A stretch of DNA of 29,846 nucleotides from Chloroflexota bacterium. GTDB lineage: Bacteria > Chloroflexota > Limnocylindria > QHBO01. The translations under genes were made by a program, and so were the position numbers. Below the pieces are notes generated by a model, which saw only the letters and a list, made by a program, of their open reading frames with translations, was not told the origin of the DNA and ran no database searches. The first letter of the stretch is position 1, and each line of letters starts with the position of its first letter. The stretch is taken from the NCBI GenBank assembly GCA_013694645.1, contig JACDBZ010000151.1, positions 1-29,846 on the forward strand. The letters are read 5' to 3'. Below are positions 13,598 to 26,570 of this stretch, one piece after another.

Positions 13598-16393
13598 TCA
13601 GCCCTGGTGCGCGGCGGCCGCCTCGAGCGCCAGCTCGGTCGCTTCGCGAGCTGTCAGCGCCAACCCGAGCACTTCCCCGGTCGAGCGCATCTCCGGACCC
13701 AGCTCGGCGCTGACGCCGGGTAGGCGCCAGAGGGATCCGACCGGCGCTTTGACCGCCACCCGCGGTCCATCCGCCGCGAGGCCGACGGACATGCCGGCCT
13801 CCGCCAGGGTGTGGCCAAGAGCGCAGCGCACGGCGGCGGCCACCACGTCGATACCGGTGGCCTTTGCCACGATCGGCACCGTGCGGCTCGCGCGCGGATT
13901 TGCCTCGATGACAACGATCCGATCGCCCGAGGCGATCATCTGCACGTTGAGGATGCCGCGCACGCCCAGGGCCAGCGCGATCCGACCGGCCGTCTCTGCC
14001 GCGCGCTCCTGCACGGCGCGCGTCACATGCTGCGGTGGAAGAACCGCGACGCTGTCTCCCGAGTGCACCCCCGGCGGATCGACCTGCTCGAGGATTCCCG
14101 GCACGGACCACTCGCTGCCGTCGCAGATTGCGTCGACATCCAGCTCGATGCCCGGAACCATCTCATCGACGCGCAGTGGCCAGCCAACGTCGGTCGCCAG
14201 GTACTCGCGCAGATCCTCGGCGCCGCGCAGCACGGCGATGCCACGGCCGCCGATCACCCAGGACGGGCGGACGATGACCGGAAAGCCATCGAGCGCATCG
14301 ATCGCGCGTCGAAGTCCGGCCGCGTCCGCCGCCAATGATCCCCGCGGACCGGCGATGCCAAGGCCGTCGAGGAAGAGGGCGAAGCGCTCGCGATCCTCCG
14401 TGATCTCGATGGCCTCGGCGCTCAATCCGGCGATCGGCACATCCGCGTAGGCGAGATCCTTCGCAAGGTCGATGGCGGTCTGTCCGCCGAACGTGAGCAC
14501 CACCATCGGCGGTGCGCCCGTCAGGGCGCGCTCATGATCGATCACGTCGAGCACGCTCTCCGTGTCGAGCGGCTCGAAGTAGAGCCGCGTGCAGGCGTCG
14601 TAGTCGGTCGAGACCGTTTCGGGGTTGTTGTTGATCACGACCGCATCCAGGCCCATCTCGCGGACGGCCCATGCCGCGCGCACGCTGCAGTAGTCGAACT
14701 CGATCCCCTGCCCGATCCGGATCGGTCCCGACCCGACCACGATCACGCTACGGCGTTCGGCGGGCGGTGCGACCTCGGCATCGGCGTAGCTGGAGTAGAA
14801 GTACGGCGTCTCGGCCGGGAACTCGCCCGCGCAGGTGTCGACGCGGCGATAGGCGGGGTGAATGCCGGAGCGGACCCGAGCCCGACGGACCGCTGCCCAC
14901 GGCACCCCGGAGACGGTCGCGATGTCGGCGTCTCCGAATCCGGCTCGCTTGCCTTCCGCCAGCGACGAACCGATGAGTGAGTGCTCCGCCTCCACCAGCT
15001 CCGCCAGCCGCTCCGTGAACCAGGGCGCGATCCCGGTCACGGCGGCCAACGTCGCCGCATCGGCCCAGTCGTGACGCAGCAGCGCGATCATGCGCCACAG
15101 ACGCGTGTCGGTGGGTGTCAGAAAACGCGCCATGTCGGGCGGGGCCCGATGGCTGAGGCCCCACGCCGGATCTTCCCAGAGCCAACCTCCCCCGCGCGGT
15201 TCCAGGGAGCGAATCGCCTTGAGGAGCGCGGGCCCGAACTCGCGATCGATCGCCATCGCCTCGCCGGTCGCCTTCATCTGGATACCCAGGCTGCGGTCTG
15301 CGGTCGGGAACTTGTCGAATGGCCAGCGCGGCAGCTTGACCACGACGTAGTCGAGCGCCGGCTCGAACGCGGCGCTGTTGCCCCCGGTGGCGGGATTCGG
15401 CATCTCGTGCAGACGTCGACCCAGCGCGATGAGCGCCGCCATCCGGGCGATCGGATAGCCGGTGGCCTTTGACGCCAGGGCGCTGGAGCGCGAAACGCGC
15501 GGGTTGACCTCGATGACCCGGTAGTCGGCGCCATCGGGCGCGACGGCCAGCTGCACGTTGCAGCCTCCCTCCAGCTGGAGGGCGCGGACGATCTTCAGGG
15601 CGCATCGGCGCAGACGCTGGACGAGAGGGTCGGGCAGAGTCTGGATCGGTGCCACCACGATGCTGTCACCGGTATGCACCCCCATCGGATCGAGGTTCTC
15701 CATCCCGCAGATCGCAATGGTGGTGTCGTTGGCGTCGCGCAGCACCTCGAACTCGATCTCGTACCAGCCGAGCAGTGAGCGTTCGACGAGCACCTGGCCG
15801 ATGGGGCTGGCCTTCAGGCCCGCGGCGATTCGCTCGCGCGCCTCGGCCGGACTGTGCGCGAAGCCACCGCCGCCACCGCCGAGCGTGAATGCGGGACGGA
15901 CCACGATCGGCGCGTGCAGATGCTCGACGAAGCGCATTCCGTCCTCGACGCTCTCCACCACGGCGCTCTCGGGTACCGGCTCGCCGATACCGATCACCAG
16001 GTCGCGAAATCCGCCACGATCCTCGGCGGCGCGGACGGCCGCCAGCGGGGTCCCGAGCACGCGCACGTCGTACCGGTCCAGGACACCGGCATCGTCGAGG
16101 GCAACGGCCAGGTTGAGTCCGGTCTGCCCACCAAGGGTCGGCAGCAGCGCATCGGGCCGATGCTCCTCGATCACCCGCGTCAGGTACGACAGCGTCAGTG
16201 GACCGATCAGGACGGTCCCGCCAACGTCCGGATCGGTCATCACCGTGGCCGGATTGGAATTGACCAGGATGGTCTCGACGCCCTCGCCGCGCAGCGCCAG
16301 GCAGGCCTGCACGCCGGCATAGTCAAACTCGGCAGCCTGACCGATGAGAATCGGTCCGGAGCCGATGACGAGCACGCGACGCGGCATGGTCAC
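13598..16393 (-). CDS. carB: Carbamoyl-phosphate synthase large subunit, C-terminally short
   Basis: GSGPILIGQAAEFDY, NSNPAT, GVHTGDS, EVNPRVSRSSALASKATG, RVDTCAGEF, GQGIEFDY, GVHSGDS, EANPRASRT, EMRSTGEV. 931 aa; the GTG overlaps the carA TGA. Confidence 0.96.
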   Translation of the reverse strand: MTMPRRVLVIGSGPILIGQAAEFDYAGVQACLALRGEGVETILVNSNPATVMTDPDVGGTVLIGPLTLSYLTRVIEEHRPDALLPTLGGQTGLNLAVALDDAGVLDRYDVRVLGTPLAAVRAAEDRGGFRDLVIGIGEPVPESAVVESVEDGMRFVEHLHAPIVVRPAFTLGGGGGGFAHSPAEARERIAAGLKASPIGQVLVERSLLGWYEIEFEVLRDANDTTIAICGMENLDPMGVHTGDSIVVAPIQTLPDPLVQRLRRCALKIVRALQLEGGCNVQLAVAPDGADYRVIEVNPRVSRSSALASKATGYPIARMAALIALGRRLHEMPNPATGGNSAAFEPALDYVVVKLPRWPFDKFPTADRSLGIQMKATGEAMAIDREFGPALLKAIRSLEPRGGGWLWEDPAWGLSHRAPPDMARFLTPTDTRLWRMIALLRHDWADAATLAAVTGIAPWFTERLAELVEAEHSLIGSSLAEGKRAGFGDADIATVSGVPWAAVRRARVRSGIHPAYRRVDTCAGEFPAETPYFYSSYADAEVAPPAERRSVIVVGSGPIRIGQGIEFDYCSVRAAWAVREMGLDAVVINNNPETVSTDYDACTRLYFEPLDTESVLDVIDHERALTGAPPMVVLTFGGQTAIDLAKDLAYADVPIAGLSAEAIEITEDRERFALFLDGLGIAGPRGSLAADAAGLRRAIDALDGFPVIVRPSWVIGGRGIAVLRGAEDLREYLATDVGWPLRVDEMVPGIELDVDAICDGSEWSVPGILEQVDPPGVHSGDSVAVLPPQHVTRAVQERAAETAGRIALALGVRGILNVQMIASGDRIVVIEANPRASRTVPIVAKATGIDVVAAAVRCALGHTLAEAGMSVGLAADGPRVAVKAPVGSLWRLPGVSAELGPEMRSTGEVLGLALTAREATELALEAAAAHQG

Positions 16394-25602: not shown

Positions 25603-26570
25603 CCGTCAACGTTGCGACGCCGGTGCGCGGGCGAGTCACGCGGCTGCGACACCTGCTCGGCGCGGGGGACGTTGAAGACCTGCATCTGGGGCGGCTGCTC
25701 GACAGGGCGGACCTGCTCCGGAGCACGCAGCGGAGCGACCGGCCCCGGCCGCTCGAAGGGATGCAGGTCGCTCTGCTGTTCGAGAAGCCGAGCCTCCGCA
25801 CGCGCGTGAGCTTCGAGGTGGCCGTGACGAGCCTGGGCGGTCATGCCATCGCGCTCGGGCCGGACGAGGTCGGCCTCGGGCGTCGAGAGAGCGCGGCCGA
25901 CGTGGGGCGCAACCTGTCGCGGCTCGTCGACGCCATCGTGCTGCGCACGTTCGCCCACGACACCCTTCTCGAGATGGCCGCCGCCGCGTCGGTGCCGGTG
26001 GTCAACGCCCTCACCGATGCCGAGCATCCGTGCCAGGCACTGGCCGACCTCCTGACGCTGCGCCGGCACTTCGGCCGGCTGGCCGGGCTTCGCCTGGCGT
26101 ACATCGGCGATGGCAACAACGTCGCGAACTCGCTGATGCTGGCTGGTGCGCTGGCCGGCCTGGATATCCGCATCGCGACGCCGACCGGATACGCGCCGGA
26201 TACGTCATTCGTCAACCAGGCGCGGGCACTCGCCGCGCGACGCCGGGGGCGCATCACCATCGGCACAGATCCGGTCGAGGCGGTCACCGGCGCCGATGCG
26301 GTCTACACCGATGTCTGGACCAGCATGGGCCGCGAGGCTGAAGCCGATGAGCGGCGTGCCCGCTTCGAGGGGTTCGAGGTGAACGCGACGCTCCTCGGAC
26401 ACGCTGCGCCACACGTCGCTGCGCTCCATTGCATGCCTGCCCATCGCGGGGAGGAGATCAGCGCGGCCATCCTGGACGGGCCGCGCTCGCTTGCCCTCGA
26501 GCAGGCGGAGAACCGCCGCTACGTCCAGGAGGCCGTGCTCATCGAATTGCTCGCTCCCCACGTTCGGTGA
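25599..26570 (+). CDS. argF: Ornithine carbamoyltransferase
   Basis: FEKPSLRTRVSFE, HPCQALAD, GDGNNVANS, DVWTSMG, HCMPAHRGEEI, QAENR. Confidence 0.96.
   Translation: MTVNVATPVRGRVTRLRHLLGAGDVEDLHLGRLLDRADLLRSTQRSDRPRPLEGMQVALLFEKPSLRTRVSFEVAVTSLGGHAIALGPDEVGLGRRESAADVGRNLSRLVDAIVLRTFAHDTLLEMAAAASVPVVNALTDAEHPCQALADLLTLRRHFGRLAGLRLAYIGDGNNVANSLMLAGALAGLDIRIATPTGYAPDTSFVNQARALAARRRGRITIGTDPVEAVTGADAVYTDVWTSMGREAEADERRARFEGFEVNATLLGHAAPHVAALHCMPAHRGEEISAAILDGPRSLALEQAENRRYVQEAVLIELLAPHVR

Follow-up and report, generated by a model that had tools for sequence, protein, structure and literature searches.

The sole carbamoyl phosphate synthetase (CPS) of a soil bacterium of the Candidatus Limnocylindria (Chloroflexota) has no MGS-like allosteric domain and is probably subject to translational repression by PyrR, as one of two independently regulated units that lie side by side. 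The window, a stretch of 29,846 nucleotides from a soil MAG (assembly of 1.84 Mb, 81% complete), has carA and carB on the minus strand and, diverging from them on the plus strand, an arg operon of nine genes (argH-C-J-B-R-G-GNAT-D-F), an arrangement referred to here as the divergon. The gap between carA and argH is 132-144 bp, depending on the choice of argH start, and contains two ARG boxes in tandem as well as a PyrR-type hairpin that has the carA Shine-Dalgarno sequence as its 3' strand.

The sequence features reported in the initial annotation, namely an MGS-less carB, an arg operon, an ARG box and a PyrR-type hairpin, were all present. Its proposal that carAB is under dual control by ArgR and PyrR stood in part: the PyrR component was supported by a conserved hairpin that sequesters the Shine-Dalgarno sequence of carA, and the ArgR component was not, since the ARG boxes serve argH.

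CarB lacks the C-terminal allosteric domain throughout the family

The carB gene (13598..16393, minus strand; NCBIfam NF003671/TIGR01369) encodes a CPS large subunit of 931 amino acids. The two ATP-grasp halves were present, as was the oligomerisation domain, and carA was adjacent; the C-terminal MGS-like allosteric domain was absent. CarB matched positions 8-927 of the 1058-position NF003671 profile and positions 5-931 of the 1052-position TIGR01369 profile (1135 bits, with a cut-off of 1027 bits), gave no PF02142/MGS match, and aligned with residues 8-928 of the 1073 residues of Escherichia coli CarB, ending at the boundary of the allosteric domain. These results confirmed the truncation that had been claimed in the initial annotation. 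No MGS-like frame, whether frameshifted or encoded as a separate gene, was found downstream of carB. The only MGS match in the genome was to a frame of approximately 549 amino acids on a different contig; family genomes had one MGS match each, within a frame of approximately 515-610 amino acids.

In a survey of the same genus a carB match was obtained in 23 of 24 genomes, each over a single gene, and all of the matches that reached the 3' end stopped at approximately position 930 of 1052, whereas those from sister families extended to position 1052. Across 60 genomes that were at least 88% complete and represented 15 genera of this Limnocylindria family, every carB ended at 928-946 and no full-length carB was found. 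The loss of the MGS domain is real and old. Six further clusters of CarB sequences without an MGS domain were also noted.

No second, pyr-linked CPS was found either; carB was a single gene even in genomes up to 99% complete, the exceptions being a small number of genomes that either showed 4-6% contamination or carried additional, stop-containing pieces of carB. Because the genome that contains the window is 81% complete, the term sole CPS rests on these more complete relatives. The count of carAB copies that had been proposed with the initial annotation therefore revealed no second full-length pyr-linked CPS in the genome or its relatives, and without such an enzyme the CPS encoded here does not qualify as the arginine-specific member of a two-CPS system. 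Carbamate kinase was rejected as an alternative source of carbamoyl phosphate, since the search for it gave only a weak cross-match to argB.

In E. coli CPS the ligands UMP, IMP and ornithine all bind to the C-terminal domain, residues 933-1073 (PMC6245113). From the absence of this domain we infer that the enzyme is allostery-free, and the same absence argues against the alternative that the truncated CarB is still allosteric by way of another site or a separate protein, in which case control of expression would not be replacing allostery. It is the domain, rather than the enzyme's response to ligands, that was observed to be missing, and of the three positions of the carbamoyl-phosphate domain that we take to be ornithine ligands (E783, D791 and E892 in E. 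coli numbering) two are unchanged or nearly so: D791 is retained and E783 is conservatively replaced by D. The third position, E892, to which we presume a role in ligand binding, is Ala in this protein, and overall we regard retained allostery as unlikely.

The tandem ARG boxes accompany argH and not carAB

The arg operon facing carAB had been described as complete, and all nine of its genes, each on the plus strand, were recognised by profile matches. They comprise argH, encoding argininosuccinate lyase (17698..19098, with an alternative in-frame ATG at 17686; TIGR00838, 488 bits); argC (19095..20114; TIGR01850); argJ (20111..21319; NF003802); argB (21262..22089, although the true start may be later; TIGR00761); argR, encoding the arginine repressor (22096..22611; TIGR01529, 123.6 bits, just below the cut-off of 130.45, and NF002880); argG (22608..23885; NF001770); a short GNAT gene similar to amino-acid N-acetyltransferases of the short NAGS type (23882..24400; NF005840/NF005921, below the cut-offs); argD (24397..25602; NF002874); and argF, encoding ornithine carbamoyltransferase (25599..26570; NF001986/TIGR00658, over the cut-off). 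Most of these genes have overlapping stop and start codons, and the operon ends at 26570. The GTG start codon of argH, which directly follows TACTCAA, is kept in most relatives that have the same arrangement.

Pattern search and conservation identified ARG box 1 (TTGCATGATCATGCAA, 17662..17677, no strand assigned), a perfect palindrome, and ARG box 2 (GTGTATGAATACTCAA, 17682..17697, no strand assigned) lies 20 bp from it. The in-frame ATG at 17686 falls within box 2, and the in-frame GTG at 17698 begins 1 nt after the last base of this box. Both the argH start and a -10-like region are overlapped by the boxes. The 1.84 Mb assembly contained only two tandem ARG-box pairs of this kind. The pair in the gap has the form of an ArgR operator, in which imperfect palindromes stand in tandem some 20-21 bp apart, and the genome also encodes ArgR. 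The boxes were conserved in 16 loci in which argH lies beside carA, and the 20-bp spacing was invariant in the 17 divergon genomes (the window and these 16 loci).

In none of these 17 genomes did the boxes overlap the -35 or -10 region of carA. The centre of the nearer box was located 50-83 bp upstream of the putative carA -10 element (values of 50, 60-68 and 83 bp), and no further ARG-like box was found in or near carA. When carAB was located elsewhere the boxes stayed with argH; tandem boxes were present directly upstream of argH in genomes G002, G008 and G024. A strict tandem-box pattern gave no match in five non-divergon genomes because the second box differs; the operator was recovered when the sequence immediately ahead of argH was inspected. 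A nearby ARG box was absent at 64 of 80 and 12 of 20 carA loci of relatives, as well as at loci from other genera, and these relatives still had the MGS-less carB and the hairpin. Since this is the condition of most family members, the co-occurrence test suggested with the initial annotation linked MGS loss to the hairpin only, and not to the ARG box.

These data bear directly on the model first put forward for this locus, that a single ArgR hexamer represses both the arg operon and the carA promoter while PyrR controls carA translation, the two together replacing allostery. The operator and the carA promoter do share one 132-144 bp gap, the centre of box 1 is 60-68 bp from the carA -10 element in 14 of the 17 divergon genomes, and the ARG boxes of sister families lie directly on carA, so that regulation of CPS by ArgR does occur within the class. 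Nevertheless, the model is improbable, given that the boxes avoid the carA core promoter at a spacing that varies, that the operator is found at argH with no carAB nearby, that most carAB loci of the family have no ARG box, and that carA has no other box of its own. An ArgR input into carAB was consequently not upheld, and the comparative data did not show the third solution that had been envisaged, in which both signals are integrated on an allostery-free CPS. ArgR could conceivably act at a distance on the carA promoter within the divergon subclade. Also improbable is a scheme in which the arginine/pyrimidine branch point is controlled purely at the level of expression: a family without the CPS allosteric domain and with one CPS for both pathways would have moved pyrimidine feedback from the enzyme to the PyrR translational switch on carA, with an arginine input contributed in this subclade by ArgR at a distance of 60-100 bp upstream from the start of carA.

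The carA leader contains a conserved PyrR-type hairpin

The carA gene (16390..17553, minus strand; TIGR01368/NF009475) encodes the CPS glutaminase subunit; it starts with a GTG at 17553 and its stop codon overlaps the carB start. Relatives keep a GTG or ATG 6-9 nt past the AAGGAG of carA. The hairpin in the carA leader (17559..17596, minus strand), identified with covariance model R1 and by conservation, consists of a lower stem (CCUU/AAGG), an internal loop (UAAGA), an upper stem of 6 bp and the hexaloop CCGUGA. The Shine-Dalgarno sequence AAGGAA (17560-17565, minus strand), 6 nt ahead of the carA GTG, makes up the 3' side of the lower stem.

Model R1 was trained on 22 pyrR leaders only. When the genome was searched with this model, two sites stood out, the carA leader with 32.7 bits (E = 7.7e-7) and the pyrR leader with 59 bits; the next match had an E value of only 0.44. 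The count of pyrR proposed with the initial annotation gave one gene in the genome, the cognate pyrR (NF003549, 244.7 bits; contig C292, positions 48-593), which is followed by pyrB and has a leader with the same architecture as that of carA. In 40 family genomes that were at least 92% complete, R1 gave two matches at E≤0.01 in 29 genomes, three or four in 9 and one in 2. The strong matches in these relatives corresponded to a leader of the pyr operon and to one other site, located just upstream of carA-carB wherever a known position of carB allowed comparison. The hairpin was present at all of the assessable related carA loci (80/80, 20/20 and 22/22). The PyrR-type hairpin proposed in the initial annotation exceeded chance and was conserved at every assessable locus.

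The UUUAA motif and the CNGNGA (CAGAGA-like) hexaloop were invariant in 40 distinct carA leaders, while the flanking sequences diverged, and 94.8% of the cells in the carA-leader alignment were paired. The apical closing pair was the only pair that covaried (A-U in 23 leaders and C-G in 10), and in 7 of the 40 leaders it was replaced by an A.G mismatch. The two pairs below the hexaloop are C-G and A-U, as opposed to the canonical U.G and C-G. In sister families, the leaders of the pyrR operon have almost the same sequence as the carA leader.

Rfam family RF00515 gave no match at E≤10 in the window or the genome. Among 14 control genomes it matched only Bacillus subtilis and Lactococcus lactis and missed the four other controls in which a pyrR gene scored over its cut-off; because these matches were confined to Firmicutes, its failure to match here was judged to be uninformative. 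The remaining Rfam families gave no relevant match in positions 12000-28000 or in the genome. Compared with shuffled sequences, the folding energy had a z score of 0.09 for 131 nt and -1.75 for 51 nt, with the 51-nt minimum free energy structure being an alternative fold. Folding energy by itself speaks neither for nor against the hairpin.

That the hairpin is not a PyrR site, and is instead a generic structure that sequesters the Shine-Dalgarno sequence, or the target of another factor, with no more than a resemblance to PyrR loops, is very improbable: the missing Rfam match, the non-canonical pairs below the loop and the limited covariation would fit such a structure, but a model built from pyrR leaders alone finds no significant site in the genome besides the pyrR leader other than the carA leader, a second strong match recurs across the 40 relatives searched, the sequence hardly differs from that of bona fide leaders of the pyr operon in sister families, and the UUUAA motif and the loop do not change even though their flanks do.

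Proposed regulation of the two units

A candidate -10 element for carA, TAGACT (17604..17609, minus strand), was recognised by its conservation among relatives. It is located 9-10 nt ahead of the CC in the CCUUUAA of the hairpin, and TA(G/C/A)ACT occurs at this fixed distance in the carA leaders of relatives while the flanks diverge. A promoter and terminator scan of positions 17450-17800, which used an E. coli-type consensus, found nothing, and the promoters were therefore placed by conservation only. No terminator-like site was found near the carA leader; this result, together with the location of the Shine-Dalgarno sequence in the stem, points to control of the translational type.

In the favoured reading, of two adjacent units with separate regulation, carAB would be transcribed from its own putative promoter (-10 element TAGACT) with a leader of approximately 45 nt, nearly all of which is the predicted PyrR-binding hairpin. 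When pyrimidine nucleotides are abundant, PyrR would bind and lock the hairpin and ribosome access to carA would be blocked, a form of repression that would be of the Mycobacterium type (translational) and would involve no terminator. ArgR, which the arg operon itself encodes, would repress that operon at the tandem ARG operator over the argH start and -10-like region.

Origin of the divergon

The divergon was found in only about one-fifth to two-fifths of the sampled relatives. Sister Limnocylindria families have a pyrR-pyrB-pyrC-[tandem ARG boxes]-carA-carB operon with a full-length carB, whereas the genus of the window has pyrR-pyrB-pyrC without carAB. The MGS-like domain of CarB was probably lost in the ancestor of the Limnocylindria family. 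The carAB genes were probably excised from an ancestral pyrR-pyrB-pyrC-carA-carB operon, with the PyrR site kept or duplicated, and their placement beside the arg operon would be a later event in one subclade.

The sister families share the tandem ARG-box type with its 20-bp spacing and the PyrR leader sequence, and theirs is likely to be the ancestral arrangement. They differ in that their ARG boxes are placed immediately at carA, their PyrR site precedes the whole operon and their CarB has the MGS domain; genuine dual control is suggested more by this arrangement than by that of the window.

Comparison with known systems

PyrR reportedly represses translation of the pyr operon of Mycobacterium smegmatis. 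As in that operon, the PyrR-type stem-loop here overlaps the ribosome-binding site and there is no terminator or antiterminator, and the pyrR leader of this genome has the same layout. Unlike the M. smegmatis operon, there is a second, separate site on a free-standing carAB outside the pyr operon, and two sub-loop pairs are non-canonical. The PyrR attenuators of Firmicutes (RF00515), some of which precede carB/pyrAa in Lactococcus and Lactobacillus, are another related system. They share with the carA leader the regulator family, the UUUAA motif, a CAGAGA-like loop and the presence of CPS genes in the regulon, but they act by transcription attenuation with a terminator, which is not found here, and their Rfam model does not match.

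In E. coli, ARG boxes overlap the P2 promoter of carAB. The present genome resembles E. coli in having a single CPS for both pathways and in possessing ArgR and ARG boxes, but its CPS has no domain for the binding of UMP, IMP and ornithine and the boxes are on the neighbouring argH promoter. The E. coli carAB genes encode one allosteric CPS and have tandem promoters, of which P2 is repressed by ArgR (PMC6245113). Two specialised CPSs are found in B. subtilis, Geobacillus stearothermophilus and Lactobacillus plantarum (PMC6245113). The location of carAB beside arg genes is a feature shared with such organisms; unlike them, approximately 60 genomes of the family had no second CPS, and the signal predicted to act on carAB is a pyrimidine one (PyrR) and not arginine.

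Implications for the family

Carbamoyl phosphate is a textbook case of one metabolite that feeds two pathways. The accepted solutions are a single, allosterically balanced CPS or two specialised enzymes (PMC6245113). Searches of the open-access literature for an MGS-less CPS, for PyrR and ArgR on carAB and for Limnocylindria gave nothing on point. The locus illustrates that adjacency in a divergon is not in itself evidence that genes are regulated together.

Truncations of the C-terminus of E. coli CPS impair synthesis, which raises the question of how catalysis is coupled in the truncated CarB, whose activity is presumed. Further questions are how the arginine supply is protected if PyrR represses the only CPS, and whether moving feedback to the mRNA enabled the loss of the domain. 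The predicted mechanism would extend PyrR translational control to the Chloroflexota and to a free-standing carAB operon. This family of abundant soil Chloroflexota represents a natural third state, with a single CPS that has no UMP/IMP/ornithine-binding domain, a condition conserved in 15 or more genera.

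A carbamoyl-phosphate synthase without an allosteric domain

The metagenome-assembled genome comprised 1.84 Mb in 316 contigs (81% complete, approximately 70% G+C); the closest public contigs (Candidatus Limnocylindria) were from soil, sediment and biocrust metagenomes. The carA gene (16390-17553, GTG start at 17553) and the carB gene (13598-16393) were located on the minus strand, back to back with a plus-strand operon of nine genes (argH, argC, argJ, argB, argR, argG, a short GNAT/NAGS-like gene, argD and argF), in which stop and start codons overlapped at most junctions. The carA start codon lay 132-144 bp from that of argH, for which the candidates were ATG 17686 and GTG 17698. 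The GNAT gene between argG and argD (23882-24400) encoded a 172-aa protein resembling short amino-acid N-acetyltransferases (NAGS-like); ArgJ was also present.

CarB was 931 aa long, matched TIGR01369 (1052 positions) over 5-931, and gave no match in a PF02142 (MGS domain) search. It aligned with residues 8-928 of the 1073-residue E. coli CarB, and therefore stops where the E. coli allosteric domain (residues 933-1073), which binds UMP, IMP and ornithine (PMC6245113), begins. No MGS-like coding sequence was found downstream of carB. The genome contained one carB gene, and a search of it for carbamate kinase was negative.

Within the genus, 23 of 24 genomes had a carB match, with a single gene covered in each, and every match that reached the 3' end stopped near profile position 930. 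All carB matches in 60 family genomes from 15 genera (at least 88% complete) ended at 928-946, with no full-length carB among them, and the single MGS-domain match per family genome fell within a frame of approximately 515-610 aa. Full-length carB was present in other families of the class. Loss of the MGS domain from CarB is a family-wide trait.

Among 1.84 billion representative proteins searched, the closest CarBs from outside the family were 1039-1081 aa long; two longer matches (1349 and 1493 aa) carried extra sequence. Six further CarB-like clusters (50% identity; P0039, P0055, P0070, P0074, P0080 and P0100) were 915-947 aa long without an MGS domain, and look like independent domain losses. 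One of them has carA as its neighbour, on a contig of 73 kb with LpxK and MurJ genes alongside (L216:4887-8832, GCA_027451845.1). Domain-less CarB therefore recurs sporadically; no description of it was found in the open-access literature. In one sister family (G038:C5:967442-970777 and other genomes), carB was a single open frame that matched the profile in two pieces, at positions 3-407 and 420-1052 (in most with approximately 40-70 codons between), which points to an insertion within the oligomerisation region.

A predicted PyrR site in the carA leader

The genome encoded one PyrR, followed by pyrB. The pyrR leader (CCUUUAA-CGCGGUC-CCGCGA-GGCCGCC-AAGGAG, 4 nt, AUG) had the RBS-occluding, Mycobacterium-type layout that is kept by most of the family. 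The carA leader (CCUUUAA-GACCGGCA-CCGUGA-UGCCGGG-AAGGAA, 6 nt, GUG) had the same layout, and was nearly identical to the pyr-operon leaders of sister families, CCUUUAA(C/G)GACCGG..C-NGNGA-GGCCGGGAAGGAG.

A covariance model, R1, was trained exclusively on 22 pyrR leaders. Across the whole genome it matched the pyrR leader (59.2 bits) and the carA leader at 17559-17596 on the minus strand (32.7 bits, E 7.7e-7); the third-best match had an E-value of 0.44. Among 40 family genomes at least 92% complete there were two matches (E≤0.01) in 29, three or four in nine and one in two. The strong matches comprised one pyr-operon leader and a second site, which, in all genomes where the position of carB was known for comparison, lay just upstream of carA-carB. 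A regular-expression search located the hairpin motif 5' of carA in 80/80 public-genome loci, 20/20 genus loci and all 22 assessable loci from other genera. TA(G/C/A)ACT was conserved, without exception, 9-10 nt before the CC of the hairpin's CCUUUAA, while the flanks diverged. In 40 distinct carA leaders 94.8% of pair cells were paired, and the closing pair showed covariation (A-U in 23, C-G in ten) and was A.G or another non-pair in seven. Folding energies were unremarkable. The Rfam PyrR element model RF00515, whose controls gave matches only in Firmicutes, had no match in the window or genome. The PyrR, MGS, 60-genome carB and 40-genome R1 tallies include four unpublished genomes (G049, G121, G154 and G183), on which no claim rests; their loci L161 and L170 were excluded from sequence analyses.

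Some family genera had an apparently leaderless pyrR (TACACT/TAGACT, 7-8 nt, ATG; L185, L188, L191, L201, L205 and G057:C2:469091-469128), with no hairpin upstream of it. In at least three such genomes a strong R1 match lay just downstream of pyrR, presumably preceding pyrB; pyrR in these genomes thus seems to have lost its autoregulation, and the carA site is retained.

Assignment of the ARG operator to the arg operon

The intergenic region contained two ARG boxes, a perfect palindrome at 17662-17677 and a second box at 17682-17697, 20 bp from the first and ending 1 nt before GTG 17698. This spacing was constant in the 17 genomes with the divergent arrangement (the window and 16 loci). In these, the centre of box 1 was upstream of the predicted carA -10 element, at a distance of 50, 60-68 or 83 bp, and hence the operator does not overlap the carA core promoter. 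Only 16 of 80 public loci and 8 of 20 genus loci had argH and ARG boxes upstream of carA; the remainder retained the hairpin and truncated carB beside unrelated neighbours. Where carAB was elsewhere (G002, G008 and G024), tandem boxes still directly preceded the argH ATG. The ARG operator has thus stayed with argH, and the hairpin with carA; the operator is part of the arg operon.

The assembly had only one other tandem pair (G000:C90:8753-8786; L215:2254-2287), TGCATATACAATCA followed 20 bp on by TGCATGATCATACA, flanked by a divergent GAF/histidine-kinase-like gene and a gene for a GlcD-like FAD oxidase, possibly marking an additional ArgR regulon member.

The features described in the initial annotation (CarB without MGS, the carAB/arg divergon, ARG boxes and hairpin) were all recovered by profile searches and motif positions, and no second, full-length carB of the kind that would have counted against it was found in the genomes searched. 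Of the co-occurrence it had proposed to test across the lineage, that of hairpin and truncated carB was upheld and that of the ARG box was not.

Sister families and proposed history

In sister families CarB was full-length and carAB formed part of a pyrR-pyrB-pyrC-carA-carB operon; the window's genus had pyrR-pyrB-pyrC without carAB. Four sister-family loci that covered the site (L175, G029:C135:1-4500; L176, G027:C7; L013; L017) had tandem ARG boxes (TGCATCTTTATGCA, 6 nt, CGTATAGTTATTCA) directly before the carA ATG; wherever the adjacent gene was determined, the boxes lay between pyrC and carA. None had an R1 match at carA; in operons of this type the PyrR hairpin was at the operon head. This layout is a more convincing candidate for dual ArgR and PyrR control than that of the window.

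In another sister family (L179, L180, L182, L183, L189 and L200), some pyrR leaders had two tandem (G/U)CCC-NGNGA-GGCC loops; others had an in-frame GTG/ATG 30-60 nt 5' of pyrR, as might be expected of a leader peptide or N-terminal extension. In a small-genome family (approximately 1.2 Mb), a canonical-looking GAUCCAGAGAGAUC loop after CCUUUCGAGAC (L018:5948-5961, G032) lay upstream of full-length carAB and gave a weak, partial R1 match; carA may have a PyrR site in this lineage, which retained the MGS domain.

The simplest history would be that carAB moved out of the pyr operon in the ancestor of the family, acquiring or retaining a PyrR site, that it lost its ARG boxes and the MGS domain, and that in one subclade it later came to adjoin the arg operon; this order is inferred. 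Of the dual control initially proposed, regulation of the window-type CPS by ArgR was not supported, as judged from operator position and phylogenetic distribution. The sequence data do support the other part, in which the sole CPS, devoid of its allosteric domain, would be under PyrR translational control.
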